64,000 bases of DNA from a virus. The translations under genes and the position numbers were made by a program. The notes beneath the pieces were generated by a model. That model ran no database searches and had not been told where the DNA came from. It worked only from the letters and a program-made list of their open reading frames with translations. Below, one piece after another: positions 708 through 26,272 of the stretch (positions are counted from its first letter, which is position 1; every line of letters starts with the position of its first letter). The stretch lies in IMG/VR virus record IMGVR_UViG_3300020392_000005; one strand, written 5' to 3'.

Positions 708-1769
708 TTATTTACCTTTTTTGTTTTTGTCAATAAAGTTCTGGTAGACTTTACTTGCTTGACCTAAATCCTTTTTCTTTTCAGGATCCTTTGCTCTTTG
801 ACTTGCTACTTTTGCTCTTTGTCCCATTGCAATTGCAGCCTGTATCTTATGAGCGTGTGTCTTGCCAGAATTTTTAATTTTGTTTACAGATTGAGTTGCT
901 TTTTGTTTATCTGTAAAACCTAAACCGTGAATTGTACCTTTAGGATTTTCATCTGTATACAAATCACTATGTTTATCTGACCCAGCTTTCTGACCTTTCT
1001 TTCTAGGTATTCTAGCGTCTGCTTCTCTCGCTACTACTTTTAGATTGTGGTCTTTCTTACTTTGGTCAATGCCGTGTCTAGCATCCTTTTGCGACATTAG
1101 TCCTACACTTCGCATAGTTCTATGTCTTCCTTTAGGTGGTGTATCTCCTAGACTGGCGATTGGGTGCATTGCACCATAACTGCCACCACCTAAACCAATA
1201 CTGCCTAATGGTCCAACACCACCAGCACCGTATTCTTTTAATTTTGCTTTTTCTAAAATCGTTTTCTTTCTAGGTTCTTCAACAAACTCAATTTCTGTTT
1301 TACCATAAGTTTTATTATCAACAATAACATCTAGTCTATCTAACTGGTCTAGTATAGACTTCATCATTGTAGAGTTTGTTTCTTTATTTTCTTTGACGGT
1401 TGTACTAAACTTTTTCATTATAAGTTGTCGTAAAGCTTTCTCAGCTTCATTTTCGTCTTTGTACTTTTTATGTGATTTAGATAATGGGTGCATTCCGTTA
1501 GGGTTCATATCTACACCGCCGTGTGCGACAGCATTTGCTGGGGCGTCTTCTTTGACTACCTTCCAACCCATTTGTAAATAAGTTCTTAATTCAGCATCCC
1601 AAACAAGTCTTTCTTTTCCGTTCTTTGAAATCTTAACTTTCTTTTCAGTTATGTTTTCTTCAGGTACGCAATTAGGCACTTGTTTATTGCCTTTCTTTTT
1701 CATACCTACTTGTTTGTAACCTGTCCAGCAGGCTTCCCATACATCTTTAAATGTTTTAATATCTCGCAT
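708..1769 (-). CDS. Modular, probable internal-head protein (CWxGY...VPNCVP module; KHSDLYTDENPKG module)
   Basis: N-terminal KTFKDVWE leader; short modules separated by x-x-E sites; modules recur in marine T4-like phages. Confidence 0.6.
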   Translation of the reverse strand: MRDIKTFKDVWEACWTGYKQVGMKKKGNKQVPNCVPEENITEKKVKISKNGKERLVWDAELRTYLQMGWKVVKEDAPANAVAHGGVDMNPNGMHPLSKSHKKYKDENEAEKALRQLIMKKFSTTVKENKETNSTMMKSILDQLDRLDVIVDNKTYGKTEIEFVEEPRKKTILEKAKLKEYGAGGVGPLGSIGLGGGSYGAMHPIASLGDTPPKGRHRTMRSVGLMSQKDARHGIDQSKKDHNLKVVAREADARIPRKKGQKAGSDKHSDLYTDENPKGTIHGLGFTDKQKATQSVNKIKNSGKTHAHKIQAAIAMGQRAKVASQRAKDPEKKKDLGQASKVYQNFIDKNKKGK

Positions 1770-2343
1770 TTAAATAATCTCCAGGTATTAATACCTCTCT
1801 ATTATCTGTCTCTAAAGTATATATGTCCATACCGAACGCTGTATTTGTTGGTTTTACTTCGTTCTCTACATCAAAAGGTGTGCCTGCAGGTAAAAACTCT
1901 TCACCATCAAATACACTTTCTTTTAATTGATACAGACCAGGTACTAAAGTTCTATTCTCAAAATACTCTTCGTTTAGTTCCTGTGTATACTTAAACTCGT
2001 CAACAGATTTTAAATACTTAACACAGGTACTCTCTAAATTGTTACCGTGTTCAGTATAGTAATCTTTATCTTCTTTTACTAATAGAGTTAAAGCAGTTGC
2101 AAAACTACCTATACGACCACCTAATCCTACTTTACTTAATATTCTTTTCAGATTGAATACAAATCTATGTAGCATTGTGTAGGCGTTCTTTTCTTTTGTA
2201 GTTTTCAAAGATAAAAATTTCTTTAATACTTTACCTTTCTCATCAATAATACCTAATTTAAAAGCAGGTTGCTTGTTAAAAGGTGTTACCAACATCTTCA
2301 CTACTCTATACGCTATCAATAAATCAATTGCTCTTGTTGCCAT
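1756..2343 (-). CDS. Conserved T4-like marine phage hypothetical protein
   Basis: YRVVKMLVTPF...AFKLGIIDEKG...FVFNLKR signature; overlaps neighbours. Confidence 0.7.
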   Translation of the reverse strand: MATRAIDLLIAYRVVKMLVTPFNKQPAFKLGIIDEKGKVLKKFLSLKTTKEKNAYTMLHRFVFNLKRILSKVGLGGRIGSFATALTLLVKEDKDYYTEHGNNLESTCVKYLKSVDEFKYTQELNEEYFENRTLVPGLYQLKESVFDGEEFLPAGTPFDVENEVKPTNTAFGMDIYTLETDNREVLIPGDYLNARY

Positions 2344-2705
2344 TATAGTTTCTCTAACTCTCTTTTTATTAACTCGTCTTCCGTTAAAGCGATTAACTCT
2401 TTCGGATACAAGTAATCCAAATATGTAAAAACAGACTTTAATATCGGCCAGTATTTTGTGTCATTTTTATATAACAACAATGTAATACAAGCGTCTATAC
2501 CAAATACATTTTGCAACACTACAATATGATTTACAACAAGTCTAATCTTTATAGAACCAGTTGTTTCATATTTTCTGAATAACCTTTTGAGATATTTAAA
2601 TCTCTTTATATCATCCCAAAATTCTTTTTCAGTTTCAAATGTCGGATTGTCGTAATGCTTTTGTGCATACAACAACCAATTATCTTTGGTTATCTGTTTG
2701 AACAT
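2343..2705 (-). CDS. Conserved T4-like hypothetical protein (NWLLYAQKHYDNP family)
   Basis: YA.KHYDNP...EF.DD.KRFKY.KRL...NH motif. Confidence 0.75.
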   Translation of the reverse strand: MFKQITKDNWLLYAQKHYDNPTFETEKEFWDDIKRFKYLKRLFRKYETTGSIKIRLVVNHIVVLQNVFGIDACITLLLYKNDTKYWPILKSVFTYLDYLYPKELIALTEDELIKRELEKL

Positions 2706-2710
2706 CTAAT

Positions 2711-3166
2711 TTACACTAATTTAGCGTAAACCTTTGATGAACCGTTAGACAATGTTTCAAACTTAACCTCTAATTTCAAGTTATCAATTCCAGGACCATT
2801 ATCTACTACCACATCTTCAGGTTTAGTTTCAGTTGTTTTACCATATGTACCACCGAATTGTTTTACTTCAGCAGTAACCGTACCAGCGTCACCTTCTAAT
2901 TTAACAGGACTAATATCTAATCCTATTCTCATTAGATTTTCTCTTAATTTGTCAACTGCGTATTGTGGTTTAATGTATTCCATATCGGCTACACTACCTA
3001 CAAAAGCATTAACTCTTTTAAGAACGCTTGGGTCTTTCAAATTTGCTGTTCCTAATGAACCATCTTCAACTGCATTACTTGTAGAAGTACCAGTTGTAGC
3101 GGCACCATATTTGATAGCATTTGATTTCACATTGCCTTCTTTTAAATGTTCTTTAAAAGTTTTCAT
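2711..3166 (-). CDS. Hypothetical protein with capsid-targeting-like leader MKTFKEHLKE
   Basis: ORF track; GGAG RBS; leader resembles T4 internal-protein CTS. Confidence 0.65.
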   Translation of the reverse strand: MKTFKEHLKEGNVKSNAIKYGAATTGTSTSNAVEDGSLGTANLKDPSVLKRVNAFVGSVADMEYIKPQYAVDKLRENLMRIGLDISPVKLEGDAGTVTAEVKQFGGTYGKTTETKPEDVVVDNGPGIDNLKLEVKFETLSNGSSKVYAKLV

Positions 3167-3175
3167 TTTTTTCTC

Positions 3176-3385
3176 CTACTTATATTTGTCCGACTTTACT
3201 TTAGAACCATCTGCTCTAGGTATCATACCTTTTGCTTTTAGATGAGCCTTATCTGTAAAGCCTGCCTTACCTGCTTTGTATCGCTTCATAGCGTCAGCAG
3301 TATTAGGCGCTTTCTCATTTACTAAATCTTCTTCAAAGTCTTTCAACTCTTCGTCTTCGTTAAACTTTGTGAACGACTTAACCAT
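3176..3385 (-). CDS. Small hypothetical protein with MVKSFTKFNE leader
   Basis: ORF track; coupled to neighbours. Confidence 0.6.
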   Translation of the reverse strand: MVKSFTKFNEDEELKDFEEDLVNEKAPNTADAMKRYKAGKAGFTDKAHLKAKGMIPRADGSKVKSDKYK

Positions 3386-3614
3386 CTTTTTTATCTTCTT
3401 TTTTAAGTTGTTGTTCAGCGCTTCTCAATGTCAAATCGCTTTCTTCTTTTCTCATCAACTTTTCAAGTATCTGTACTGCACCGTGAACGGCGTTTAAACT
3501 TGCTCTGGACTTTGCTAAGTCTTCTTCAAGTCTTTGTACGGATTCTTGTAGTTTTGTTCTTTCGCCAAGAAGTTGATTATATTCTTTCTCAACGACACCT
3601 ATACTTAAACTCAT
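3378..3614 (-). CDS. Small coiled-coil protein
   Basis: Heptad pattern; AGGAG RBS. Confidence 0.65.
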   Translation of the reverse strand: MSLSIGVVEKEYNQLLGERTKLQESVQRLEEDLAKSRASLNAVHGAVQILEKLMRKEESDLTLRSAEQQLKKEDKKDG

Positions 3615-3634
3615 TATGTTCTCCTAATTATAAA

Positions 3635-4084
3635 TTACGCAACTACAAAACCGTGTCCGCCTATTACATTCCATTTAGAATTTTTAAATAAACATACAAC
3701 GGTTTCACCTTCAGCATTAAGAGTGATAGTTGAACCACCTCTTAAATTTGTTGGTGTTATTGTTATCGCATTAGAAGCTGTTCCTGTTGCGATAATTACT
3801 TTTTGTTGTCCATCAGCACCATCTTGTAATGATAATGCAGCTACACCAGCACTTTGGTCAACTTCAGTTATTGCTGAAGATGTATCAATTGCTGTATCTG
3901 TATGTGTTAACGCTTCAGACGCTTGTTTCAAACCTACGAAAGTAGGAATGTTTTCAAAAACATCTTTTGCGGTAACTCTTTTATTGATTGGTGTATTTTG
4001 GACATCATCAACAATATGAAATAAATCTCCACTTGCTAATGATTTACCTAGGTCGTCTAGGGCTGTGATTTTTTTATCTGCCAT
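3635..4084 (-). CDS. Probable virion structural protein
   Basis: MADKKITALD start; T/A/G-rich beta character; late promoter at 4151. Confidence 0.55.
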   Translation of the reverse strand: MADKKITALDDLGKSLASGDLFHIVDDVQNTPINKRVTAKDVFENIPTFVGLKQASEALTHTDTAIDTSSAITEVDQSAGVAALSLQDGADGQQKVIIATGTASNAITITPTNLRGGSTITLNAEGETVVCLFKNSKWNVIGGHGFVVA

Positions 4085-4150
4085 TTTATTCTCCTATAAT
4101 TCCGAGTTAACGGTAAACTACTCATTGCATTATACAATGACCATATACAC

Positions 4151-4158
4151 TATTTATA
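4151..4158 (-). promoter_or_regulatory. T4-type late promoter TATAAATA
   Basis: Exact consensus, intergenic. Confidence 0.8.
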
Positions 4159-4163
4159 CAAAC

Positions 4164-4189
4164 AAAAAGGGGACCACAAAGGATCCCCT
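4164..4189 (-). terminator. Rho-independent terminator
   Basis: GGGGATC-CTTTGT-GGTCCCC-TTTTTG on the minus strand. Confidence 0.7.
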
Positions 4190-4215
4190 AATTATTATAT
4201 TTGAATTTTTACTTA

Positions 4216-4710
4216 TTAAGCGTCTGCAAATTCTGTATCGTCACCTTGGTCACCTGCGATAGATGACATAGCAACTAGTACTTCTGTCTGCACTCTTCCA
4301 CTTCTTCCACCAGAACCGGCTACTCTTCGTACCCAACCAGCGTGTGCTGTTTTTGTAGTACCAACACCTTGTTCAGTAGTGTCAACACCGAATACTTTTG
4401 TCGGGTCTCCTTGAGTACCAGATGAATTGGCACTTTCAGAAGTTGTTACCGATTTAGGTTTTTCGGATAAAGTGTATGCTGTAGCACTTCCTACTGCTGT
4501 TAATGTTGCACCAGGTACACCAGCAACAACCGTTGCTGAAGTATCACTAGCAATAGCAGTAATTAAGTAATCTTCGCTTGCAACTCTAATATAGTCTCCA
4601 ACAGCTGCTTGTGTTGTTAAAGCAGTTGAAGAACCAGTAACCGCACCAGCAGAGCTGATTGCTACCGTTCCTGAAGCTGTTTTAGAGTCCTTGTTTCCCC
4701 ACGCACTCAT
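4216..4710 (-). CDS. Probable virion structural protein (MSAWGNKD...HAGWV...EVLVAM family)
   Basis: S/T/A/G-rich; own late promoter and terminator. Confidence 0.6.
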   Translation of the reverse strand: MSAWGNKDSKTASGTVAISSAGAVTGSSTALTTQAAVGDYIRVASEDYLITAIASDTSATVVAGVPGATLTAVGSATAYTLSEKPKSVTTSESANSSGTQGDPTKVFGVDTTEQGVGTTKTAHAGWVRRVAGSGGRSGRVQTEVLVAMSSIAGDQGDDTEFADA

Positions 4711-4770
4711 AGTTGTTCTCCTATTTCTAAATTAATTTTTAAGCTTAAAGATTAATCTAATCTTCGTTAT

Positions 4771-4778
4771 TATTTATA
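4771..4778 (-). promoter_or_regulatory. T4-type late promoter TATAAATA
   Basis: Exact consensus upstream of 4216..4710. Confidence 0.8.
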
Positions 4779-4779
4779 A

Positions 4780-5364
4780 CTATTTGAAACCTAGTTTTTT
4801 GAGTTGGGATATAGTGTTGGAAGTAGAGGTGTGTAGTATTCCGATACCGCCTCTTGCTTTGAATTGTGATATGTTCTTTGAATAGTCGTCAATCAGTATA
4901 GTAGGCATACCTCCTACTTTAGCAAAGTTTTGTTTCTCTCTTCTTTTTACTAGATTAACTTTTGCACCAGACATACCTAATCTTGTTCTAGCCCATTTAC
5001 TTTTGCCAGGTATACAATTAGGGTCAGTAGTTTGTTCTACGAAAGCAGATAATATGTGTGGGTCATACTTATTAATAAATGACCATAGTCTTTGACCACC
5101 TGGATTCCAAGGTAGATTACTCCAGAAGTTAGGAGTATTCATAATTGGTTTCCACTTATCTCTTATTGTCTTAAATTTTGTTCTAGGTTCTTTTGCCCAT
5201 TGGGACATAGGCATACCAACTGCTCTTTCTGCAGCCTGTTCAAAATTACACAGGACTCCGTCCATATCACAATAAATTCTAGGTAGTTTTTTGTCAACGA
5301 GAGAATACTCGTTTAGGTTTTTTACCTGATAGATAACATCTTGTCTTAATTCTTTAAACTTCAT
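4780..5364 (-). CDS. HAD-family 5'(3')-deoxyribonucleotidase-like phosphatase
   Basis: IYCDMDGVL motif I, ILS motif II, GK, LIDD motif IV; start moved to 5364 behind AAGGAA RBS. Confidence 0.75.
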   Translation of the reverse strand: MKFKELRQDVIYQVKNLNEYSLVDKKLPRIYCDMDGVLCNFEQAAERAVGMPMSQWAKEPRTKFKTIRDKWKPIMNTPNFWSNLPWNPGGQRLWSFINKYDPHILSAFVEQTTDPNCIPGKSKWARTRLGMSGAKVNLVKRREKQNFAKVGGMPTILIDDYSKNISQFKARGGIGILHTSTSNTISQLKKLGFK

Positions 5365-5390
5365 AGTGTTTCCTTGTCTCATTATGCTTT

Positions 5391-5439
5391 ATTATTACAC
5401 ATTTTCTAGCAAAAGTCAAGCAAAAAATGAGCAATTTTT
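5391..5439 (-). promoter_or_regulatory. Sigma70-like promoter with upstream near-palindrome (copy 1)
   Basis: TTGACT-17-AATAAT; plus strand aaaaaatgagcaattttt at 5422-5439. Confidence 0.6.
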
Positions 5440-5744
5440 TACACTTGATAGTCTATTTTAGGGTTTACTTCTACCTTATCTGACTTTGTTTTGTTATCTG
5501 TTAATTTCTTTTCAGGTGCCTTTGATTTAATGTCTAAAGGGTCTTTCTCTACTGCATTTTTAGGTAGAACCGTATCACCAGAATGGTCTTCTTTCTTTGC
5601 TCTTAATTTTGCAAGGTCAGAACCATCTATTTTACCGTTCTTGTTAACATCTAATTTCTTTTGTTTAGGTGTTAACTTTTCATTTACTTTAGAGATTGCG
5701 TCTTCTAACGAACCTGGTTTAATATCTAAATATCTTTTTCCCAT
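5439..5744 (-). CDS. Small protein with EF-hand-like loop (DVNKNGKIDGSD), probable internal-head protein
   Basis: DxNxxGxIDxxD motif after a VNE site. Confidence 0.6.
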   Translation of the reverse strand: MGKRYLDIKPGSLEDAISKVNEKLTPKQKKLDVNKNGKIDGSDLAKLRAKKEDHSGDTVLPKNAVEKDPLDIKSKAPEKKLTDNKTKSDKVEVNPKIDYQV

Positions 5745-7903
5745 TATTTACTTCCTCTAACTTTCTTTGCTAAATCTTTATCTGCACCGCCCCAAGTACC
5801 ACTTGATTTGGTTACAAAAGAGTTTACTCTAGCAAGTGCCCATTGTTGTTGTGTAGCACCTGGTCTATGACCACCTTTCCACGCAGCCATTCCTCTATCA
5901 TAAACTTTCTTTAAAATAGAATACGGCATACCTGTCTTATCAGCTTTGTTTCTTACTGCTTTAATACTTTCATAAGTCATTTTAGCAGGATGATTTTTGT
6001 TTTCTACTTTCATTTTTTTCTTTACCATATTAGTTGCGGTACCGTATCTTACATCATCGCCTTTTTCTTTACCATATCTATCTCTAAATGATTTCTTTGG
6101 TAAGTCATCAGCAACTTTGTGTACCATTTTTATTTGTTTTTTAGATAGGTCAGCTTCAGTTTTAAGTGCCTTCTCTAAATCTTTTGCTTGTTTAGTATGT
6201 GCCTTAACTGCACCTTTCAATTGTTTGATAACATCTTTTACAGCAGGTTTATCTTTACTATCTAAATCTTCTTTCTTCATTTCTTTGTCTCTTAATAATT
6301 TGTTTGCGAGACCTATTGATAATGGTACCTCACCTGTATCTGGATTAGGTTCAGGTTTTACAGCTTTATTCTTTTCTATTTCTAATTTCTGTTTAAGTAA
6401 TGCGACTTGGTCTTTTAGAGCAGCGATACTCTCTTTAGATTTATCTTCTTTCTCTTTAGACTTATCTTCGTCTTTACCTTTTAACATATCTTTTAATTTC
6501 ATTTTTTCCTCTGGTTCTTGTTCTTGTTCAAACATACTACCAAATATTCTAGCGTATGGGTCTCTTGCATATAAGTGACCGCCGTGTGTATCAAATCTAG
6601 TTTTTAACTTATTCATAAAGTCTTTGTTGGTTACATTACCTCTTGCACCTTTGGCAGGAGCATTAACACCAGCAGGTTTAAATAAGTCACCTGTATTCTT
6701 ATCTATGAAAGCGTGTATACTTCTCTTCTGTCCGTTTTCTGTATCGTGTATCTTAATGTATTTAGGACCTACCGTTTTCATTAAATCTCTTTTTTGTTTT
6801 GCATAAAGACCTTTGAAACTAGGATGATTTTTAATCTTGTCTTGTCCTATCTTAATGTAATCATCAACGCCTTTCATTACGGCAGCGTTTTCTGCTACAT
6901 ATTCTTCTTTCTGCATAACTCTTACATCATCGCCAAACTTTGCGACAACTTGTTTGTGTATGTTCTCTATATCTTTTGCACTATCAACTCTTACTTCTGA
7001 ACCAGAAGCTGATAGTTCACCACCACCAATCTTACCTTTAAACATATTGGCAACTTGTTTTGCTTGTGATGAGTTCTTACACATATATTCAATGTATTCT
7101 GCATATTCTTTTAATTCGTTTTCTTCTCTAATTCTTACATAAAATCTATTGTTAAATGGTGATTGATAACCGTCTGCTTTAGCACCTTTGTTTGATTGCA
7201 TATAAGCACTAGCGGCATTTCTTGCCATTGTCATATTAGGATAAACCTTATCTAAAACTTTTGTACCATTTCTTAATTTCATAGTCTCTTCTTTAGTAGG
7301 TTTCATACCTTGTTTTTTTAATCTGTCTATGTCTGCTTCTGACGGAGCGTTCTCATTAGTTTCTGTATTATTATCTTTATAGTCGTCTGTCTTTTTCTTT
7401 TGAATACCTTTAGCGCCGTGGTCACTAGTATGTGTTTCTGTAATCTCTTCCCAAGATTTATTTTCAAAAGCAGATAACTTAACTCCTTTAGGTACTTGAA
7501 TACCTTTCTGTATCATACGACTAGCAGCCATCGCTGAAAGAAAAGGAATGTCTGCTTTGTAAAGTTTAGGTAGTTGTGAATTTGTAATTTTGTCAAAGAT
7601 GTTTCTTAATTGATTAGCTCTTGCAAGTGAAATTCTTGCACCTTTAAGTCCTGAATATTCTTTTTTAAGTTTCTGTATTTGTGCGTCTGTAAACTCCCAC
7701 AACATACTTTCAGGTAAGTCTTCCTCACCTAGTATTGACTTAACCGTAGACAACGGAAGTTTCATCTTCTTTGCTATCTCTTCAGGTGATGAACCACCTG
7801 CGAACATAGTGGCAATTGTTTTCATCTTACCTTCGTCTAGCTGTATATCGTTTGCCCAGACTTCAGCGATTGCTTCTGCCATTGTCTTTTTGTATCTTGT
7901 CAT
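5744..7903 (-). CDS. Large modular protein, C-terminal DUF5824-like domain; probable gp21-processed internal-head polyprotein
   Basis: C-terminal KVYDRGMAAWKGGHRPGATQQQWALARVNSF; many x-x-E boundaries. Confidence 0.6.
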   Translation of the reverse strand: MTRYKKTMAEAIAEVWANDIQLDEGKMKTIATMFAGGSSPEEIAKKMKLPLSTVKSILGEEDLPESMLWEFTDAQIQKLKKEYSGLKGARISLARANQLRNIFDKITNSQLPKLYKADIPFLSAMAASRMIQKGIQVPKGVKLSAFENKSWEEITETHTSDHGAKGIQKKKTDDYKDNNTETNENAPSEADIDRLKKQGMKPTKEETMKLRNGTKVLDKVYPNMTMARNAASAYMQSNKGAKADGYQSPFNNRFYVRIREENELKEYAEYIEYMCKNSSQAKQVANMFKGKIGGGELSASGSEVRVDSAKDIENIHKQVVAKFGDDVRVMQKEEYVAENAAVMKGVDDYIKIGQDKIKNHPSFKGLYAKQKRDLMKTVGPKYIKIHDTENGQKRSIHAFIDKNTGDLFKPAGVNAPAKGARGNVTNKDFMNKLKTRFDTHGGHLYARDPYARIFGSMFEQEQEPEEKMKLKDMLKGKDEDKSKEKEDKSKESIAALKDQVALLKQKLEIEKNKAVKPEPNPDTGEVPLSIGLANKLLRDKEMKKEDLDSKDKPAVKDVIKQLKGAVKAHTKQAKDLEKALKTEADLSKKQIKMVHKVADDLPKKSFRDRYGKEKGDDVRYGTATNMVKKKMKVENKNHPAKMTYESIKAVRNKADKTGMPYSILKKVYDRGMAAWKGGHRPGATQQQWALARVNSFVTKSSGTWGGADKDLAKKVRGSK

Positions 7904-8199
7904 TTTTTTTCCTCGTATTCTTTAATGTCTATTATTAATCTACCTTCACCTTTGTGTAATCTATGATACACCATTTTAGGTATATAATACTCACTACCTA
8001 CTTTTAACTCTTCAGGCAACTGATTATCCATTTGAAGTTTCCAATTAACACCAGAGACAATCTTAATCTTTCTATCTAACTTGTCTCTATGCCAAATTAG
8101 TTCTTTGTCTTCAATGTCATTATTGAAAACTCTCTGGTGTATACCATTTGTTTTAAAATCAGTATACGGTTTACCAAAAGAAGTTTCCACCATTGCCAA
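7900..8199 (-). CDS. Small cupin-like conserved phage protein
   Basis: ELIWHRD...WKLQMDN..P...IPK..YHR..KG pattern; start uncertain. Confidence 0.6.
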   Translation of the reverse strand: MAMVETSFGKPYTDFKTNGIHQRVFNNDIEDKELIWHRDKLDRKIKIVSGVNWKLQMDNQLPEELKVGSEYYIPKMVYHRLHKGEGRLIIDIKEYEEKK

Positions 8200-8707
8200 G
8201 TCCTAAACTCTTTGCATATCTAGGCAAATTACAAGCCCAATATGACGCCTTTGTTTTATCCTTTTGACTAGCACATCTATGTCTAGCTGCAAAGGACTTT
8301 CTAGCTTTGGGGTCGTTTAGTTTCACTTTCAATCCTGTTGTATCTCCCCAAGTCACCTTCTTAATCTTATCGCCGTCTTTGACGAATACATAAAACTTTT
8401 TAGGTCCACCTCTTTTAGGTTTGTTCAAAGGAGGATTCTTTTCCTCTTCTGCAATCGGTATATCTAAAGGCACATTTTGCTCTTCGTATATACCAAACTC
8501 ACCTATATCAGTTGATAGTAATTCTCTATCCCAAGCACTATCTACTTCTAATAGACCTTCATTATACATATCTCTTGCCTCTCTAAACAAGGCATAAAAT
8601 TCTTCACTATGAATACGATAGATGTTATTCGCTAGAGGTATGTTATTCTCTATGTGATAATGCAACGACTTCGTTATCTTTTCTGCGTAATCACTAAATC
8701 TTAACAT
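8171..8707 (-). CDS. DUF6321-like protein
   Basis: LNKPKRGG.KKFYVFV...ARKSFAARHRC...YWAC; MLRFSDYAE leader. Confidence 0.65.
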   Translation of the reverse strand: MLRFSDYAEKITKSLHYHIENNIPLANNIYRIHSEEFYALFREARDMYNEGLLEVDSAWDRELLSTDIGEFGIYEEQNVPLDIPIAEEEKNPPLNKPKRGGPKKFYVFVKDGDKIKKVTWGDTTGLKVKLNDPKARKSFAARHRCASQKDKTKASYWACNLPRYAKSLGLGNGGNFFW

Positions 8708-11636
8708 ACTCTTTAAACGATTGCACTTTCAACCGTTCCTCCATCTTTTTCACAGCTTCGTCAATCTCTTTTTGATACTCTTCGCCGTATCGTTTCTTAT
8801 ATTTATCAATAGTCTCACTTGAAGCAGCCCACTCTTTTATATCTTCTGTGGTAATCTTCTCTGGTGCTTGTTCAGCACGCTTTTTAGTGTCTACTGATTT
8901 CTCATTTGGCGTCTGTCCAGGCGTGATTTCTTTAGTATGATTGGCATAATCAGCACCTATTTCGTATGCTTCTTTGCCGTACATCTGGTTAAATTTCTTT
9001 GTGTGTTTAGATGTTTTAGTCTTTGCACCTTTATCACCTGGGGCAGCTTTGTAATCACTATCTTTGTCTGATTTACTATACTTCTGTTTAGAGAAATGAC
9101 TTGCTCTCTTTTCTTTTTCACCTTTTTTCAAATCTTTATAGTATTTTTTAGGTTGTGTTCCGTCTTTCTTTTTGACATCTTTATCTTGTGGTAACTTCTT
9201 ACCATATGCTTCTTTTAGTTTCATATCTATTTCTTTCTCGGACATAGCTTCAAAACCATAATCTACATTTAAATCGTGTTCGTGTATTCTAACTTCATCT
9301 ACTTGTGGTGTAGGAATACAATCCCATATCCAACATTTGTGTAAGTTAGAATTGTTATCTTCTAATACAATGTAATTTGTTCCTCTTCTTACTACTTTAC
9401 CAGAAACATCTTGTTTTTGGTCTTCAACTATATCGTCTTGTTTAAATAATTGTTCTCTTATGTAAAGGTCTCTTACCTGCCATTGAGTAAAGTTTTCAAT
9501 AGAAGATATAGGTTTCATAGTACCTAATCCGTGAGATTGCATATTCGCTTGTAAGTTCATACCTTTTCTAACTAGACCAAACAACTTCTGTTTGTCTCTA
9601 AATGAAGTAGGTAATCCTCTTTGAAAAGATTTAAAATCATCTTTTGCGGCTGCGTCTCTCATCTTACTTGCACTCATACCTGTTGCACCTTCAGCGTCTG
9701 GGTCTCTTTCGCCAGCACTTACAACATTAATTTTATCGTACTCGTAATCAGTACCTCTTGCCTTTACGCCGTTATATCTGTTTAGTAGTGTTTCAAATTC
9801 TCTTACTCTATCTGAACCAACTACCATTGTTATTTCGTTTGCTTTACCATTTAGTTTATTGATAACTTCAATCGCTGTTCTAGCGCCAGGTATTTGTTTT
9901 ATCTTACTAGCATATCTAGGAAACATTGATTTCATAATTCTAATTTTGTCATCAACTTTTAATGGATTCTTTTTACTATCAAAAGAACCACTAGGTACTA
10001 TAATAAAATCATTTGCACCTACACTCGCAACTTTATTAATAAGTTTTTCGTGTCCTATTGTTGGTGGATTAAATCTACCAAAGGTAAATGCAATATGTTT
10101 TTTAGGTGTACCTGTTGCTTCTTTTAAACTATCTATTTCTCTATCTGTTATATTACCATCATCTAAAATATCTTTACACTTCTTATAGAATTTTAAGTAA
10201 TGGTATTTCTCTAACATTTTATAGATAACATTTTTAGGAAGTTTGTGTTTCTTACCAAACTCTCTAATTTCTTCTGGCGACATATCACTTTGAAATGCAG
10301 CTTGTCTGTCTTGTATAACTTGGTCGCCTGTATCAATGATAGATTGTATACTATCTTCAATCTCATCTAATTTATTTCTTATCATAGATTGTAGATTGTC
10401 AACATCATCATTTGATAATCCTCTTAATTCTTTGTAATCAATTATATCTCTTACTAGTTCGCCTTTGACAACATCTAACTCCATAACTTTCTTACCGAAG
10501 TCGTCCATATATTTGTCTTTGTCAAACTCTTCTTTCTCTGGTCTTCTGACAAACTTATTATTCTCTACATCAAATACGCCATCTGCCATACTATCATTTT
10601 TCTCTTTGACAGCAGGGTCTACTATTACAAAATAATTGATTGGGTGTTTAGTACCTGGTACTAGTTTACCATTTACATCTTTTAAGTTCTTTCTTAATGC
10701 CTCTAACGCAGCTTCTCTTTCTTCTTCTTTGACATCAAACAATATATTAATATCTAAATCTGCGTCTTCTCTATATCTCTTTGTTAAGATAGAACCGATT
10801 AATGAATACTTTTTGATTGGGTGATATTGTGCAAATTGTTTTAGTTGTGCGTCTATCATATCTTTCACAACTTTTTTTAATTTAGGATTGTTTGTTTCTG
10901 CGTCATCAAATACGCCAGGTGCATATCTCTTTCTAGGAATATCTATAATACTTTCCTGAATATTAACCATATTGATTAATTTTTTAGCAATCTTAACACT
11001 TTCCTCGTGGTCAGAAGGATAATGCCAACCTGCAATAACTCTTCCATAACCACACTCGTCAGCAAGTTCAATAAGATTATCTTTATGTTTAGGATATAAT
11101 TTACCATAGTATTCTGCAAGTAATCTACTTTGCAAACTATGACCTGATGGATACGCAGGAGTTTTCATAGTATCAGAAATTAATTCCATACTATCAAACT
11201 TTAAATTCATTGCGTCTGCAAGTTCATATGGTCTAGGTCTTTGAAATTTATTCTTGTAATATCTAACAACACCACTACCTGCTTTTTTAATCTCGCTTAT
11301 ATCACTATCTTTGTATTCTAAATTGTTTTCATCTAGGTATTTTTTTATACCATAAAAAGTTTCTTGGTCGTGGTTCTCTACACTTTTTTCTATATCACTA
11401 TTTCTACTCTTAAATAGTTCTATCATAGTGTTCATTTCATCTTTAGTTTCAGGACTATCGTTCTCTGGTGGCGTCTCTACATCAATATCTTTCCAGTTAC
11501 CATCTATATTCTGTACAGGTTTAGGTTCTACTTTAGGGTGTGTCAAATCATTTAGGTCTTCGTCAACCATCTTCTTTCTTTTAAGAAGTTCTTTCACATA
11601 GTTTCTATAATATGCGTTTTGAAAATTATCTGGCAT
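8694..11636 (-). CDS. Multidomain enzyme: PAP2/haloperoxidase-type phosphatase + pol-beta-type nucleotidyltransferase + HIGH cytidylyltransferase-like domain + basic tail
   Basis: K..FQRPRP / PAYPSGH / GRVIAGWHYPSD; GSILTKRYREDADLDI; FGRFNPPTIGH...VVGSDR...MSASKMR. Confidence 0.75.
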   Translation of the reverse strand: MPDNFQNAYYRNYVKELLKRKKMVDEDLNDLTHPKVEPKPVQNIDGNWKDIDVETPPENDSPETKDEMNTMIELFKSRNSDIEKSVENHDQETFYGIKKYLDENNLEYKDSDISEIKKAGSGVVRYYKNKFQRPRPYELADAMNLKFDSMELISDTMKTPAYPSGHSLQSRLLAEYYGKLYPKHKDNLIELADECGYGRVIAGWHYPSDHEESVKIAKKLINMVNIQESIIDIPRKRYAPGVFDDAETNNPKLKKVVKDMIDAQLKQFAQYHPIKKYSLIGSILTKRYREDADLDINILFDVKEEEREAALEALRKNLKDVNGKLVPGTKHPINYFVIVDPAVKEKNDSMADGVFDVENNKFVRRPEKEEFDKDKYMDDFGKKVMELDVVKGELVRDIIDYKELRGLSNDDVDNLQSMIRNKLDEIEDSIQSIIDTGDQVIQDRQAAFQSDMSPEEIREFGKKHKLPKNVIYKMLEKYHYLKFYKKCKDILDDGNITDREIDSLKEATGTPKKHIAFTFGRFNPPTIGHEKLINKVASVGANDFIIVPSGSFDSKKNPLKVDDKIRIMKSMFPRYASKIKQIPGARTAIEVINKLNGKANEITMVVGSDRVREFETLLNRYNGVKARGTDYEYDKINVVSAGERDPDAEGATGMSASKMRDAAAKDDFKSFQRGLPTSFRDKQKLFGLVRKGMNLQANMQSHGLGTMKPISSIENFTQWQVRDLYIREQLFKQDDIVEDQKQDVSGKVVRRGTNYIVLEDNNSNLHKCWIWDCIPTPQVDEVRIHEHDLNVDYGFEAMSEKEIDMKLKEAYGKKLPQDKDVKKKDGTQPKKYYKDLKKGEKEKRASHFSKQKYSKSDKDSDYKAAPGDKGAKTKTSKHTKKFNQMYGKEAYEIGADYANHTKEITPGQTPNEKSVDTKKRAEQAPEKITTEDIKEWAASSETIDKYKKRYGEEYQKEIDEAVKKMEERLKVQSFKEYVKI

Positions 11637-12303
11637 TGCTTCTCTTTAATTGTAGTTCTTTTTCTATCCACTTTTTCGCTACATAATTTTGTACAGGAAC
11701 ACTAATTAATCTCCTTACTTGTTTAAATACTTTTAATAGTTCATCTTCTTTTGCGTCATTGTTATCAACGACTATCATATTTCTCATACCAAACATATTT
11801 TGAAATCTACCGATATTATTTTGTACGGTTTGCCAACTCTTTCTAGTAATATCTTCTGGCACGCTTCTAGTTCTAATTCTATTTCTTTGTAATGCAACTT
11901 CTAAACTAGTGTTTACAAATATCATATAAGTGTCATAACCTAACATCTGTAGCATACTTCTTTGTTTATTAATTACATTATAATCTCTACCTGTTGCGTC
12001 TATAACTAAACCTAGTCTACCTCTAATGTATCTGTCCATCTGGTCGCCTGTAATCTGTTTTGCTCTTTGTCTCAATGGGTCTCTAGCACTTGCTTCATTA
12101 TCAGGCATTTTCAATGATAGACCTGCTTTCTTTAGATACATTTCAAATCTTGTATCAGAATTAACCATCTTTAAACCTAATCCTAAAGTTGTTCTATTGG
12201 TTACATAAGTCTTACCAGAACCAGGACCACCTGCAAGAAAAAATGCTTTGAATATTCCTGGGTCGTAAACACCTTCTTGTATTATAGATTTAAATTGTTT
12301 CAT
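11626..12303 (-). CDS. P-loop kinase (zeta-toxin/polynucleotide-kinase-like)
   Basis: GGPGSGKT, LVIDATG, ALQRNRIR lid; MKQFKSIIQE leader. Confidence 0.75.
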   Translation of the reverse strand: MKQFKSIIQEGVYDPGIFKAFFLAGGPGSGKTYVTNRTTLGLGLKMVNSDTRFEMYLKKAGLSLKMPDNEASARDPLRQRAKQITGDQMDRYIRGRLGLVIDATGRDYNVINKQRSMLQMLGYDTYMIFVNTSLEVALQRNRIRTRSVPEDITRKSWQTVQNNIGRFQNMFGMRNMIVVDNNDAKEDELLKVFKQVRRLISVPVQNYVAKKWIEKELQLKRSNAR

Positions 12304-12590
12304 ACTTTATATAGAGTATACTTTAAAGTTATCTCTTCTCCTTTTTTAATATCTTTTAATGTTTGCACATAAAACTTACCATCAACTTCTATCTTCTGTA
12401 CATTTGGTTTATCACTATGATTTATGAAACCACCTAGTGGCGTTCTATATAATTCTCTTCCATAGTTCAACCAACCTATACCCAAGTCTGTCCACTTGTC
12501 AATCTTCTTTGTTGCGAAAACTCCGTAACCTTCTATGGGCGATAACTTTAGTGTCAAATTATCAGGCAAAGGTCTATACTTATCTGTCAT
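12300..12590 (-). CDS. Minimal SET-domain protein (putative lysine methyltransferase)
   Basis: GYGVFA...GGFINHSDKPN...IKKGEEITLKY. Confidence 0.8.
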   Translation of the reverse strand: MTDKYRPLPDNLTLKLSPIEGYGVFATKKIDKWTDLGIGWLNYGRELYRTPLGGFINHSDKPNVQKIEVDGKFYVQTLKDIKKGEEITLKYTLYKV

Positions 12591-12894
12591 CTCCGCTACC
12601 GTGTATCTTGTCCTCTTCTAATCGTTTCTGTAATTTAAATATATTAGATTGTGCTACATCATCTAATCGTATATCTAAATCGTTTGCTAATGCACTAACA
12701 TACCATAGTACATCACCTAATTCTTTTTTAATATCTTCTTTTGAGAAAGTGTTACCGTCTCTCATATTCTTTTTAATTTTATCTGCAACTTCGCCAACTT
12801 CTGAACAAAGTCCTATCATAGGATAAGTTATCTTATCTTTTGCAGGATAAACTGCTGATGATATACTTAATGCTTGATAATCATTAAAGTTCAT
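12580..12894 (-). CDS. mazG: MazG-like NTP pyrophosphohydrolase
   Basis: GLCSEVGEV...ELGDVLWY...N..KL..R...GSGDDR. Confidence 0.85.
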   Translation of the reverse strand: MNFNDYQALSISSAVYPAKDKITYPMIGLCSEVGEVADKIKKNMRDGNTFSKEDIKKELGDVLWYVSALANDLDIRLDDVAQSNIFKLQKRLEEDKIHGSGDDR

Positions 12895-13468
12895 TTTGTA
12901 TCTCCTTTATAATATCTTTCGCAATATCACCAGGCTCTTTTCCTTGTGCCTTAATACTAACAAAGCCTGGTTGTCTTTTGAAGTAATCAATCGCTGGACC
13001 TGTTTCTTTTTTATACAAGGCAATTCTATCAGATATAATATCTGGTTTATCATCGGCTCTTCCTCTCTTTGTCAATCTTCTAATTACTTCTTCTTTATCC
13101 ACATCTAAAAATACAACAACATCATAACCTATGCCAAACTTTTCCATATCTCTAACTTGTTGCATATATCTAGGATAACCATCTAGTACATAACCTTTTG
13201 TTGCACTTGCAACTTCTTTTCTAATAAGTTTTAAAACTATATCGTTAGGTGCAAACTTACCTTGGTCTAATAAATTCTTAATCTTCTGACCATCAGGACC
13301 ACCTTTGTCAATTTCTTTTCTCAATAAACCACCTGGGTATATGTGTTTGATACCAAAGTGTCTAATGATGTATTCAGAATAGGTTGACTTACCTGAACCA
13401 GGACCACCCATAATGACTACACGAACCATCTTGGCTTCTTTTAAAAAATTAACAAATGTCTGTACCAT
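12884..13468 (-). CDS. adk: Adenylate kinase (short, LID-less type)
   Basis: GGPGSGKST, G.LLR, LDGYPR, RGRADD. Confidence 0.85.
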   Translation of the reverse strand: MVQTFVNFLKEAKMVRVVIMGGPGSGKSTYSEYIIRHFGIKHIYPGGLLRKEIDKGGPDGQKIKNLLDQGKFAPNDIVLKLIRKEVASATKGYVLDGYPRYMQQVRDMEKFGIGYDVVVFLDVDKEEVIRRLTKRGRADDKPDIISDRIALYKKETGPAIDYFKRQPGFVSIKAQGKEPGDIAKDIIKEIQNEL

Positions 13469-13502
13469 TCTTTCTCCTGTTTCTGTTTCTAAAAAAATCT
13501 TT

Positions 13503-13634
13503 CTATCCTATTAAATACATTATTAAAATACCGATTGCTAATCCTTCTAACCACGCCAGATATACTGACTTCAAAGGATGCTCGTGTATGAAATTAAACT
13601 TCCAGTCTAATATTTCTTTTATAAATTTTTTCAT
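13503..13634 (-). CDS. Small membrane protein, 43 aa (MKKFIKEILDWKFNFIHEHPLKSVYLAWLEGLAIGILIMYLIG)
   Basis: Hand-translated; ATG overlaps upstream TAA; hydrophobic C-terminus. Confidence 0.6.
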   Translation of the reverse strand: MKKFIKEILDWKFNFIHEHPLKSVYLAWLEGLAIGILIMYLIG

Positions 13635-14851
13635 TATCCTTTTACCCAATCTTTTGCGATAGTAAAGTTTGCTCTACTAAACTCTAATCTATCTACTAGT
13701 TTGACTACATTACCTATCTTATCTGTAGCAACAAATCCTTCAGGTGCGGTAACTCTATAACCACTATCAGTTCTAATAAAGTGACCAACACTTTGTATCT
13801 GTGCTAACTTCTGCAATATTGTATTCTTCGCTGTTTGCAAAGTCATATATGTTGCGATAGAAAAATATAGTGCTTGTTTGTTTCTATCAATAAATTTTAA
13901 ATTGTTATCTTTTGCATTTATATATTTCTCTTTACCTCTAGCAGTTTTCTTACTATCTATTTCTGCTTGTATAAAGTTCTCATAGTAATCTCTAAATCTA
14001 TCTTGTAATGTTCTAACACTACCCATACCACCTTTACTATCTCTAATGACAGAATTGAAAAATGTCTTTAGTCTGAAACCAACTGACAACTGGTCATTAC
14101 TATCAAATAGATTTAACAAAGGTCCTGCCTTCTGTAAACTACCTTCTGCCATTCTTAATTGTGCATTAAACTTAGCAACTTCTGCTCTACTCATTGTTGC
14201 ACTACCACTAGTATCTTTGTATTGTGCCGATGGTACGAATACACTAGCAGAATTGATACCTCTTACATAACCGAAACTTGCATTTAAACTATCCATTGCA
14301 TTACCATTATATTGAGTATGAAATACAATACCTAGTCTTGCTCTTGCAACTTTTCTACCAGCGCTACTATCAACTGGTAAAGCATATGTAATTGTGTTAG
14401 GTGTAAAAGAAATCATAGATTGACCATCTATGTTTACTACTTTCTTTTCTTCACTAGTAAATAATAAATCGCCTTGTAAGATACCTCTTATACCTAACTT
14501 TTTTAATTCTCTTAAACAGACTTGAAGTTTAGACGCAACAGGACCACTATGGTTTCTGTTTATGTCTGAAACGGTATAATTGATTTTGGGAGTTCTATTG
14601 AATACAGATTTTGTTCCAACAAAGAATTTGTTGTTTTCAGGATTGATACCACAAACTATGGCAGGTGCACCGTCCCATTTAACGGTTACATTTACTTTCT
14701 TGCTTGAGTTACCTACAAGCATTTTTTGTAAAGACTTTAAAAATGCAATCGCATTTCTACCACCTTTAGCGCCGTCATTTATAATACTATCTTCTAAATG
14801 CTCTAGGTGTGTGTTCGTACCTGAGCTTGAATATCCTTTAAAACTAAACAT
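13634..14851 (-). CDS. DUF6267-family protein, possible ATP-dependent ligase-type nucleotidyltransferase
   Basis: HLEHLED, TVKWDGAP, QGD, PEGFV, VKLVDR. Confidence 0.7.
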   Translation of the reverse strand: MFSFKGYSSSGTNTHLEHLEDSIINDGAKGGRNAIAFLKSLQKMLVGNSSKKVNVTVKWDGAPAIVCGINPENNKFFVGTKSVFNRTPKINYTVSDINRNHSGPVASKLQVCLRELKKLGIRGILQGDLLFTSEEKKVVNIDGQSMISFTPNTITYALPVDSSAGRKVARARLGIVFHTQYNGNAMDSLNASFGYVRGINSASVFVPSAQYKDTSGSATMSRAEVAKFNAQLRMAEGSLQKAGPLLNLFDSNDQLSVGFRLKTFFNSVIRDSKGGMGSVRTLQDRFRDYYENFIQAEIDSKKTARGKEKYINAKDNNLKFIDRNKQALYFSIATYMTLQTAKNTILQKLAQIQSVGHFIRTDSGYRVTAPEGFVATDKIGNVVKLVDRLEFSRANFTIAKDWVKG

Positions 14852-14918
14852 TTTTGTCCTTCATTTTTTCCATATACAAATAAACTATCCATCAATATAA
14901 TACTCACTTCGTCTCTTA

Positions 14919-14926
14919 TATTTATA
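14919..14926 (-). promoter_or_regulatory. T4-type late promoter TATAAATA heading the enzyme block
   Basis: Exact consensus. Confidence 0.8.
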
Positions 14927-16368: not shown

Positions 16369-16397
16369 ATACTAGACAATATTTATTCTTATGTCAA
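16369..16397 (-). promoter_or_regulatory. Sigma70-like promoter
   Basis: TTGACA-17-TAGTAT. Confidence 0.55.
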
Positions 16398-18123: not shown

Positions 18124-18436
18124 CAAGGATTGTACCATTCTTTATTCTTTCATCTAATATTTCAACTAATATATCACCAATATACTTTATAAATGCAGGT
18201 TGGTCAATATCCAAGTCCAGTTCTTCTGGTTTTCTCAATAGAGTCCATTGAAACTGCAAAGGAAGATTGCCGTCAGATTGTTCTTCATTACCAAACTGCA
18301 CCTTGCCGTATTTGTAGATTACATCTTTGTACTTGCCTTCAACGATTTTTATACTACTAAAATCGTCTCCGTCTCTTTGTACATAGACATATCTCTTATT
18401 CGCCGTAGAGGAATTTTCTTTTTGCTTGTTCATCAA
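18113..18436 (-). CDS. Conserved hypothetical protein at the T4 gene 40 position
   Basis: [12 protein letters not shown]...IGDIL; lies between uvsX and 41. Confidence 0.55.
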
Positions 18437-24784: not shown

Positions 24785-26272
24785 TTATTTTTTCTTTTTG
24801 TCAATAGGTGGTAACCTTTTACTTAATACAAAAGTCCTGTTAGGATTAACAGACGCATTGAACATACGGATAACTTCTCTATTAAGTAATACATCGGACC
24901 TCGCCCTAGGTCTTTGGTCTAGTCCAAATTCTATATCTTTATATGTGAAACCATTAAAGGTTAAATCTAATAGTACGGTAGTTCTTACTTCTGATGGTTC
25001 GTCTCCTTCTGCGTTTGCTCTAAACACTCTGGACTCCCCGTACTTCGGTGCCGAATATTTTTTGCCATTGTAGTTCCAAGTTACCGTTTTACCATTTACT
25101 TTGATATCTTCGGCGTGCATTGAACAAGCGTGAGCACCGTTACCTGTATCCATCTTCGCTCTAATCTTACCTATGTCACCAACTTCAATAGTCTCTAACC
25201 AACCTACCTCTTGTAGTGATTGTCTATCCCAGTTGTCTCTATCTATGACATACTTAACAAAATTCTTAACAAGTTGCTTACCTGATATTGCACCCCCAGG
25301 TGTAGGTCCTTGTAAATCTTTATATAGATAACCTTCGTAATCTGCACCAGTACCTGGCGAACCATTTACTTCTAATAGATAATGTTTACCATCGTGGATT
25401 ATATGGTCAACTCCTACTAGGTATGCTTTACTTACTCTACTTGCTTTTAATACTAATTCAATCTCTTCTTCACTTAACTTATAAGGTTTCGCTTCTGCAC
25501 CTCTATGAGTATTAGTTCTAAAGTCAAATGATGATTGTATTCTTTTTGTACTTGCAAATATCTTATTGTCTACCACGAAAGTTCTTACATCAAACTTAAC
25601 AGGCATAAATTCTTGTATCAACAATTCAGCACCGTGTTTCCATAATGCCTGAATAGTAGATACTAGGGATTCATAACTATCTAATTTTACAACACCAATA
25701 CCTTGCGTTCCTGTTAGAGTTTTTAAGACAACAGGAAACTTATTACCTATTAGTTTCATTGCGTCATCTATATTCTTCTCGTTAGAAACGAAAGCAGTTC
25801 TAGGTGTAGGTATACCAAACTTCTCAAATAATAGAGCAGTTGTCAATTTGTTATTACAAGTTAACATAGCGTTTCTAGTATTACACATAAACGCACCTGA
25901 ATTTTGAAAGGCAGATATAATTGATAATCCACTTTCATCTTCTACTGCACCTGCTCTGGTAACACAAACGGTATCTTTACCTATAAATGTATGTTCAGTA
26001 TCTTTACCATCATAGTTATAGATTGTTAGAGTATTCTTCTCTTCGTCTTTACCTGTAATGATAGCGTGTCTAGTTTCAATAACTACACACTTGATATTTA
26101 ATTCTTCGCAAGTATCGTTAATAAGTTTTACGGTAAGTTCTTTGTCTTCTTTACCACCGACTTTTCTCTTTTTTAAATTAGGATTAGTCTTGGTAACAAC
26201 GGCAATCGTAATTGGTTTGCCTTCTCGTTCAACCTTTTCTGTTATGAAATCTTTAAACTTTGGTACTTGCAT
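24785..26272 (-). CDS. rimK: RimK-type ATP-grasp ligase fused to a C-terminal RimB-like (retropepsin-like) protease
   Basis: GTQGIGV, LLIQEF, DFRTN.HRG, GVD, LEVNGSPG; then VGW.E, AKMDTG, VLLNR. Confidence 0.8.
   Translation of the reverse strand: MQVPKFKDFITEKVEREGKPITIAVVTKTNPNLKKRKVGGKEDKELTVKLINDTCEELNIKCVVIETRHAIITGKDEEKNTLTIYNYDGKDTEHTFIGKDTVCVTRAGAVEDESGLSIISAFQNSGAFMCNTRNAMLTCNNKLTTALLFEKFGIPTPRTAFVSNEKNIDDAMKLIGNKFPVVLKTLTGTQGIGVVKLDSYESLVSTIQALWKHGAELLIQEFMPVKFDVRTFVVDNKIFASTKRIQSSFDFRTNTHRGAEAKPYKLSEEEIELVLKASRVSKAYLVGVDHIIHDGKHYLLEVNGSPGTGADYEGYLYKDLQGPTPGGAISGKQLVKNFVKYVIDRDNWDRQSLQEVGWLETIEVGDIGKIRAKMDTGNGAHACSMHAEDIKVNGKTVTWNYNGKKYSAPKYGESRVFRANAEGDEPSEVRTTVLLDLTFNGFTYKDIEFGLDQRPRARSDVLLNREVIRMFNASVNPNRTFVLSKRLPPIDKKKK

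Follow-up and report, generated by a model that had tools for sequence, protein, structure and literature searches.

Candidate capsid-targeting leaders of T4 type on enzymes and small proteins of an uncultured marine pelagimyophage

The closest described counterparts of the system considered here are the internal proteins of bacteriophage T4 (IPI, IPII and IPIII, together with Alt), which carry an N-terminal capsid-targeting sequence (CTS) of 10-19 amino acids (aa) that ends at a Glu-Ala or Glu-Gly cut site and is processed by the prohead protease gp21. In T4, genetic analysis assigned targeting to residues 4 and 7 of this leader, and processing to residues 8 and 10 (PMC9026906). The giant phages SPN3US and phiKZ also possess many head-packaged, protease-processed ejection proteins that are cut after Glu and enter the host cell (PMC5694885, PMC10052503); they represent another lineage, with another cut motif and long propeptides and with no short portable leader of the T4 kind. 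In cyanophages, the idea that virions carry enzymes into the host has been published (PMC3037559, PMC10665884), NMNAT-like proteins and kinases recur in the virion proteomes of S-CREM2, S-SZBM1, S-SCSM1 and S-CBWM1, and their entry into the host was suggested (PMC10665884, 2023). Here we report the analysis of CTS-like N-terminal leaders in a 64,000-nucleotide (nt) stretch of viral DNA (IMG/VR record IMGVR_UViG_3300020392_000005, hereafter the window), for which an original prediction had proposed that the metabolic enzymes of one gene block are made late, packaged into the head, and injected to act before phage transcription starts.

The source phage is classed as an uncultured marine T4-like pelagimyophage, a relative of the SAR11 pelagiphages. 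Its capsid protein shares 82.6% identity with that of Pelagibacter phage Mosig, 76% with that of Methylophilales phage Melnitz, and 71% with that of HTVC008M, and the phage is regarded as uncultured because a near-identity DNA search of the block against 50,697 phage records returned no match. The block (positions 708-14851) is located downstream of gp41, in synteny with the interval between gp41 and gp61 in HTVC008M, Melnitz, Syn9, and S-SM1; the gp61 primase gene itself is off the window, and the placement was judged from the HTVC008M map.

The leaders of this block resemble those of the T4 internal proteins in their near-identical start, in the same aromatic/hydrophobic/I-L/Glu spacing, and in the Glu-Ala/Gly cut site, and both phages have an S77 protease, a gp22-type scaffold, and a late promoter. 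In contrast to the small basic proteins of T4, the candidate cargo of the window includes housekeeping-type enzymes (adenylate kinase, P-loop kinase, ATP-grasp, NMNAT-like, and nucleotidase proteins), there are many more carrier families, and some modules are chained, with the cut site retained at the joints. With the cyanophages, the window shares the gp41-gp61 block and a homologous NMNAT-like module (42% identity to Syn9 gp184), whereas this module is here one part of a fused chain of 980 aa, and the phage belongs to the pelagiphage type. We consider it reasonably probable that the leaders are capsid-targeting propeptides of the T4 kind, which is the best available reading for most of the listed proteins. 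The mechanism is that of T4, and the novelty lies in the payload, in how many families carry the leader, and in the jointed chains.

Leaders and their likeness to T4 capsid-targeting sequences

The N-termini quoted in the original prediction were all located at their genes (eight proteins checked, including DUF6267 and RimK), and the Pfam assignments of ADK, AAA_33/zeta, DUF6267, and RimK agree with it. By the pattern used there (M-x(1-4)-F-x(4-5)-E), nine of the approximately 85 open reading frames (ORFs) of the window have a leader, compared with 1.7-1.9 expected from shuffled N-termini or internal positions; two of the nine are chance hits, namely the DNA polymerase gp43 (MFNFYKDVIE, resembling MKEFYISIE of T4 gp43) and the ORF at 63396-63992. 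The strict pattern requiring the exact T4 spacing (aromatic-x2-hydrophobic-I/L-x-Glu) gave four hits against 0.15-0.18 expected, and shuffling of residues 2-16 abolished the leader signal. Staphylococcus phage K (30% G+C) showed no enrichment by the first pattern or its loose variant, and three hits against 0.8-1.0 expected by the strict pattern. Alignment of the start regions revealed no shared nucleotide element around the gene starts, and thus an explanation at the level of RNA or RegA sites was set aside.

The start of T4 IPII and IPIII cited in the original prediction was confirmed by reading the T4 genome. With the cut marked by a slash, the T4 proteins read MKTYQEFIAE/A (IPII and IPIII), MKTFKEFTSTTTPVSTITE/A (IPI, with the start MKTFKEF...), ...GSFLTE65/AEIGG (gp23), and MAKINELLRE/S (gp24). 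Exactly the T4 spacing is found in the P-loop kinase (F4, I7, I8, E10), the 151-aa protein at 2711-3166 (F4, H7, L8, E10), adenylate kinase (Adk; F5, F8, L9, E11), and the RimK-like protein (F6, F9, I10, E12), while the proteins at 8171-8707 and 3176-3385 follow it only loosely and DUF6267 does not follow it. The window leaders end with FLKE/A, IQE/G, LKE/G, ITE/K, or MAE/A, a hydrophobic-x-Glu motif that recurs in the clade as FLKE/A, FLNE/A, FLEE/A, AFLSE/A (Syn9 gp184), and TFLSE/A (Melnitz). The maturation site of the major capsid protein of the window, FLSE52/A, aligns with that of T4 gp23.

A 9-residue position-specific scoring matrix (PSSM), trained solely on the marine Adk, kinase, and RimK leaders, ranked gp61.1 (18.0), IPI (13.0), and IPII and IPIII (11.6) as the top four of the 256 T4 ORFs, where 0.37 ORFs are expected at a score of at least 10. 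The same matrix placed gp184 first in Syn9, assigned 14.3 to the protein GC190 of S-SM1, and in Melnitz gave five hits of at least 9.6 inside the syntenic block and one more (11.4) outside; in Staphylococcus phage K, one hit of at least 10 was obtained. The spacing, the cross-detection of IPI, IPII and IPIII, and a cleavage motif equal to that of the capsid protein support the assignment of the leaders, at the sequence level, to the T4-type CTSs.

The T4 ORF scoring above IPI-III, gene 61.1 (NC_000866 18966-19130, minus strand; 54 aa), starts with MKTFKEFIKE and is located directly upstream of the primase gene 61; its leader is identical in 8 of 10 residues to that of the 151-aa protein in the gp41-gp61 block of the window, whereas the bodies are unrelated and only the leader aligns. 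A literature search found nothing tying gp61.1 to the head. Based on its N-terminus, gp61.1 is a candidate for a fourth, hitherto unrecognised, T4 internal protein with a CTS.

Every relative examined retains the leader, and its codons change synonymously. Its length is 9-12 aa in the window proteins and 8-25 aa in the relatives, and it is followed by a variable linker and then by the conserved domain. Across 35 distinct IMG/VR relatives of the RimK-like family, F6 and E12 never change, position 9 is always occupied by Phe or Tyr, and position 10 by Ile, Leu, or Phe; the invariant residues are encoded by both TTT and TTC and by both GAA and GAG, which argues for selection on the protein and not on the RNA. 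The mean identity in this family is 0.69 for residues 1-12 versus 0.33 for residues 13-21, the value for residues 22-60 being unusable because linker indels shift the register. The P-loop kinase leaders of relatives vary in length and wording (MKQFKQIIQE, MKTFKHIIQE, MLRFSQFISE, and MKEFKGFKEQYLQE) and always end with E/G just ahead of the conserved VYDPGIFKA. In the 151-aa family, 19 of 23 distinct relatives score at least 8, and the remaining four do so only via an upstream ATG. In the 719-aa protein, the start MTRYxKTM[AS]E/A is kept in HTVC008M and Melnitz, where it is the sole BLAST-alignable part between the two orthologues.

The Adk of the window has the P-loop GxPGxGK(S/T), scores 128.7 bits with Pfam ADK (cut-off 26.8), has short AK1-type kinases as its best solved relatives (E 1.5e-29), and is preceded by AGGAG 5 nt ahead of its ATG. 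Its 120 best homologues among 5.8 billion proteins all carry a leader, most commonly MKTFRDFIFE/KLGRMRIVMLGGPGSGK. Bacterial Adks begin directly at the first strand without a leader, and the solved AK1-type enzymes have their own short N-terminal stretch without the motif, although the window Adk has only approximately two residues more than AK1 before the aligned core. The original prediction had proposed that identical N-termini in cellular homologues would speak against it; the motif is absent from the solved cellular Adks.

Among the loci retrieved, the leader is borne by at least eight unrelated families, and in relatives most families with a leader consist of small proteins (40-180 aa) without a recognisable enzyme domain. 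The nucleotidase family has members both with and without the leader, its relatives either retaining MKFKELR... or starting right at MKPRIYCDMDGV. In all relatives, DUF7207 and the proteins at 3635-4084, 4216-4710, and 1756-2343 are leaderless.

For two of the proteins, the leader assignment of the original prediction had to be revised. In DUF6267, the start MFSFKGY corresponds to the targeting-like half of a leader, which is kept in relatives as MF[ST]FKG[YF] and belongs to a segment (residues 1-17) modelled by AlphaFold2 with a predicted local distance difference test (pLDDT) score below 50; the Glu half was not recovered. The start MRDIKTFKDVWE of the 353-aa protein at 708-1769 does not hold as a free leader, as its counterpart in Melnitz lies inside a 650-aa protein: residues 2-40 match residues 326-367 of the latter (...KKFKDMFGE/EDPCW), as well as internal positions of phrog_727.

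Virion records, module joints, and the proposed packaging route

Published proteomics of related phages places members of this block in virions. In S-SM1, six proteins detected in purified virions were assigned, via their locus tags, to the gp41-gp61 block (Sullivan et al. 2010, PMC3037559 Table S8). They include the T4-GC190 'cytidylyltransferase', with 25 peptide counts compared with 18 for the portal protein, as well as GC1453, GC1454, GC1455, GC425, and GC426 (PMC3037559). GC190, which starts with MKKFSAFLNE/AERS, is a homologue of the NMNAT-like module in the 980-aa protein of the window, and GC1455 starts with MLSFKELQE/K. The words 'N-terminal', 'propeptide', and 'cleav' are absent from the S-CREM2 paper (PMC10665884), and in the literature searched 'capsid targeting sequence' and 'cyanophage' co-occur only in a T4 review.

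The block modules are fused or split differently among phages. The 980-aa protein has LKE/A joints at residues 506 and 809, and its C-terminus reads ...QSFKEYVKI. Its NMNAT-like module is preceded by SLKE506/A, and the length and sequence of this joint differ among 80 relatives, in which it always reads x-E/A, x-E/N, or x-E/K, 6-10 residues before AFTFGRFNPP, a distance equal to that from the leader end in the stand-alone Melnitz NMNAT-like protein. The 69-aa protein at 3176-3385 corresponds to the tail of a 170-aa HTVC008M protein, where it is internal behind ...GFKEFIMKYLE/QAPNTAD. Polyprotein processing of the 980-aa chain may reasonably be inferred from these joints; [LIFVM]-x-E-[AGS] sites are not enriched in it (four against 3.1 expected), and the idea thus rests only on their positions at homology breakpoints. 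The ORF encoding the 980-aa protein and the ORF starting with MLRFSDYAE overlap by 14 nt in different frames (8694-8707), both encoding leader-like peptides there, and in Melnitz the 980-aa end and the 8171-8707 part are fused; the overlap could be a gene fission or shift site.

On the proposed route, late transcription of the block would start at the TATAAATA promoter, alongside that of the head genes. During prohead assembly, the initial portion of the leader (M-K-T/S-F-K-x, followed by an aromatic or hydrophobic residue at the third position past the Phe) would dock the protein on the gp22-type scaffold core, and the S77 prohead protease would cut after the Glu of (F/L/I)-x-E before Ala, Gly, or Lys, the same motif at which the capsid protein would be trimmed. 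The mature enzyme would remain in the head and exit with the DNA. The predicted cargo comprises Adk, the PNK/zeta-like P-loop kinase, several small proteins, and probably the RimK-like ATP-grasp protein, as well as the PAP2, nucleotidyltransferase, and NMNAT-like modules of the 980-aa protein, whose E/A joints may be cut apart. From their leaders, the tagged enzymes probably enter the virion as cargo that the head protease trims. We infer docking, cutting, packaging of the kinases, ejection, and early action in the host as further steps, among which ejection followed by action before phage transcription, as originally predicted, is conjecture.

Several observations speak against this route. 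DUF6267 lacks a Glu site close to its N-terminus, the third residue past the Phe is variable (H, I, F, Y), and the AK1-type kinases have a natural N-terminus that aligns with LKEAK of the Adk leader. The membrane-type ORF at 13503-13634 also begins with MKKFIKE, which means that starts of the form MK-x-F also occur outside the cargo. Enrichment by the strict pattern or the matrix is slight in HTVC008M and Mosig, and ORF calling was crude (first ATG, at least 50 aa). The virion evidence comes from orthologues and concerns the NMNAT-like protein and block neighbours, not Adk, the P-loop kinase, or RimK; GC190 was undetected in the S-PM2 and Syn9 virion studies, and the S-CREM2 authors noted that abundant cytoplasmic proteins may co-purify with virions (PMC10665884). 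The late expression originally predicted for the leader proteins would agree with the conserved promoter before the block; the RimK gene belongs to the replication module between regA and gp43 and has no late promoter seen nearby.

The leader might instead act in the cytoplasm, as a docking peptide gathering nucleotide enzymes, or as a propeptide or degron through which a protease switches them on or off late in infection. Many carriers are indeed nucleotide- or NAD-related (Adk, P-loop kinase, nucleotidase, NMNAT-like), RimK is located among the replication genes, and the virion records concern other proteins than these particular families; yet the same leader is present on small non-enzymatic proteins, is near-identical to experimentally proven T4 CTSs, ends with a copy of the maturation site of the capsid protein, and is borne by GC190, which is present in virions. 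On balance, we find such a cytoplasmic role rather unlikely. An origin of the pattern in A+T-rich start context, in an initiation preference, or in a recombining gene-start cassette, without function at the protein level, is highly improbable. The 34% G+C genome, the A/T-rich codons of Lys, Phe, Thr, and Glu, the unrelated membrane ORF starting with MKKF, and cellular ThyA-type starts (MKQY...), which show that an independent origin is possible, would agree with it. This explanation is largely refuted by the loss of the signal upon shuffling of residues 2-16, by the lack of nucleotide-level conservation around the starts, by the alternating synonymous codons of the invariant Phe and Glu, and by little or no enrichment in Staphylococcus phage K at 30% G+C.

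Packaging and trimming could also occur without any benefit for the next infection, the proteins being filler of the head or scaffold, as the small basic internal proteins are, or inactive passengers. The prevalence of small leader families without a recognisable enzyme domain in relatives (40-180 aa) and the low copy number per head expected for large enzymes favour this possibility, whereas the catalytic motifs are intact and conserved across relatives (the P-loop GGPGSGK of each kinase, FGRFNPPTxGH of the NMNAT-like module) and T4 Alt, cited in PMC9026906, provides a precedent of a packaged enzyme able to act after ejection; we judge delivery of nothing useful to be improbable. Beyond capsid targeting itself, a plug-in cargo system can be advanced only tentatively. 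In such a system, any protein with an MKTFK-type leader or an E/A joint would be loaded and then released by the protease, and a nucleotide/NAD/RNA-end toolkit (Adk, the PNK-like kinase, phosphatases, the pol-beta and NMNAT-like nucleotidyltransferases, and the ATP-grasp ligase) would enter slow-growing hosts (SAR11) and blunt nucleotide-, NAD- or tRNA-targeting defences before phage gene expression.

The T4-like phages that infect SAR11 and picocyanobacteria rank with the most abundant viruses of the sea. Proteomics repeatedly finds enzymes in such virions with their entry route unexplained, and a mechanism would be provided by a T4-type leader that ends in a protease site. If the leaders are capsid-targeting propeptides, the cargo would become predictable from sequence alone, the first biochemical events of infection would be performed by delivered enzymes, and the T4 capsid-targeting principle would be widened from a few small proteins to a broad exchangeable payload.

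Gene layout, late promoters, and neighbouring features

The window has a G+C content of 34%, and its long ORFs are all on the minus strand (Table 1). It comprises a T4-type replication module (gp43 at 21614-24109, clamp and clamp loader, RegA, UvsX, and gp41 at 16759-18138) and a T4-type head/tail module (terminase, sheath, tube, portal, S77 protease, T4_CASP scaffold, and Gp23-type capsid protein).

Table 1. Positions of the leader-bearing genes, their neighbours, and the associated regulatory and head features in the window; a slash marks the predicted cut.
Feature	Position	Strand	Remark
T4-type late promoter TATAAATA	14919..14926	-	heads the block, 68 nt before DUF6267 start
DUF6267 protein, 405 aa	13634..14851	-	first late-block gene; Pfam DUF6267 1.9e-122
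Adenylate kinase	12884..13468	-	leader MVQTFVNFLKE/AK (codons 13436-13468); Pfam ADK 2.6e-37
MazG-like pyrophosphatase	12580..12894	-	leaderless, N-terminus MNFNDYQ; Pfam MazG 6.1e-14
SET-domain protein, 96 aa	12300..12590	-	leaderless; Pfam SET 4.3e-12
P-loop kinase (AAA_33/zeta-toxin type)	11626..12303	-	leader MKQFKSIIQE/GVYDPGIF; Pfam; PSSM score 14.6
980-aa multi-enzyme protein	8694..11636	-	PAP2 phosphatase, pol-beta-type nucleotidyltransferase, NMNAT-like cytidylyltransferase, DUF5824; Pfam
178-aa protein	8171..8707	-	leader MLRFSDYAE/K; equals C-terminal module of fused 650-aa Melnitz protein
719-aa protein (DUF7717 + DUF5824)	5744..7903	-	leader MTRYKKTMAE/AIAE; N-terminus conserved
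NT5C/HAD-type 5' nucleotidase	4780..5382	-	variable N-terminal extension (MKFKELRQD... from Met7); phrog_2643 5.8e-28
Late promoters	4771-4778 and 4151-4158	-	serve the structural-type genes 4216-4710 and 3635-4084
Structural-type leaderless genes	4216-4710 and 3635-4084	-	each behind a late promoter
Terminator-like hairpin	4168-4189	-	beside the in-block late promoters
69-aa protein	3176..3385	-	leader MVKSFTKFNE...LVNE/KAPNTAD; relatives begin MKRFKNFISE or MVKKFKSFVEE
151-aa protein	2711..3166	-	leader MKTFKEHLKE/G; PSSM score 14.1
353-aa protein	708..1769	-	starts MRDIKTFKDVWE/ACW; module-start (joint) motif, not a free leader
RimK-type ATP-grasp + Zn_protease-like protein	24785..26272	-	leader MQVPKFKDFITE/K; Pfam; outside the block, in the replication module
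Prohead protease (T4 gp21 type)	54453..55100	-	presumed processing enzyme; Pfam Peptidase_S77 6.2e-36
Scaffold (T4 gp22 type)	53181..54371	-	presumed docking partner of leaders; Pfam T4_CASP 1e-74
Major capsid protein	51820..53157	-	propeptide end ...DAAFLSE52/AAPTN; Pfam Gp23 model from residue 63

The late promoter claimed in the original prediction at the head of the block is present, and in 10 of 11 IMG/VR relatives the same octamer precedes DUF6267 by 67-97 nt, whereas the 11th carries CATAAATA. Eight exact copies of TATAAATA occur in the window, all on the coding strand, preceding the protease (25 nt upstream of its gene), the scaffold, other head-region genes, hsp20, DUF6267, and the two in-block structural-type genes. 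A scan for sigma-70 promoters was uninformative (58 sites versus 64 expected), and a literature search for Syn9 transcript timing yielded no usable paper. Just upstream of the block, AATAAATA is found at 16380-16387, 32 nt before the 472-aa phrog_1462 gene (14930-16348), which may also be late.

The gene at 4216-4710 occupies the place of the annotated S-layer domain protein of HTVC008M in the shared gene order, with no sequence match between the two; in S-SM1, the S-layer domain protein (T4-GC425) was detected in virions (PMC3037559). In DUF6267, K58-W-D-G61 is invariant in 10 relatives and resembles motif I (KxDG) of ATP-dependent ligases, and in other phages the domain is fused to a cytidylyltransferase (phrog_455). 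No match to DUF6267 was found by phmmer against PDB or, for the AlphaFold2 model (mean pLDDT 66), by Foldseek at E of at most 0.001, and the VIA-align matches were confined to generic helical bundles (Z of at most 7). The model is mediocre, no convincing fold match was obtained, and no function, including that of an RNA or DNA ligase, is claimed for DUF6267.

Between DUF6267 and Adk (13503-13634, minus strand) lies a 43-aa ORF whose C-terminal helix is hydrophobic (MKKFIKEILDWKFNF...LAIGILIMYLIG); this ORF is confined to the closest relatives, and elsewhere Adk directly follows DUF6267. The 96-aa SET protein between MazG and the kinase is kept in relatives, and a minimal methyltransferase of this kind is unusual for this phage group. 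Mosig has the closest capsid protein, yet BLASTP retrieves almost no gp41-gp61 block proteins there; it keeps the RimK-like gene including the leader (MQVQPFKNYLEE). A ferredoxin-like ORF (51431-51745) with CATAAATA 6 nt upstream adjoins the capsid gene, and the GTG-start ORF at 30168-30377 (VSITVVVRNNNLEQAMRVLKKKVQK...) strongly resembles the 30S ribosomal protein S21 gene annotated in HTVC008M.

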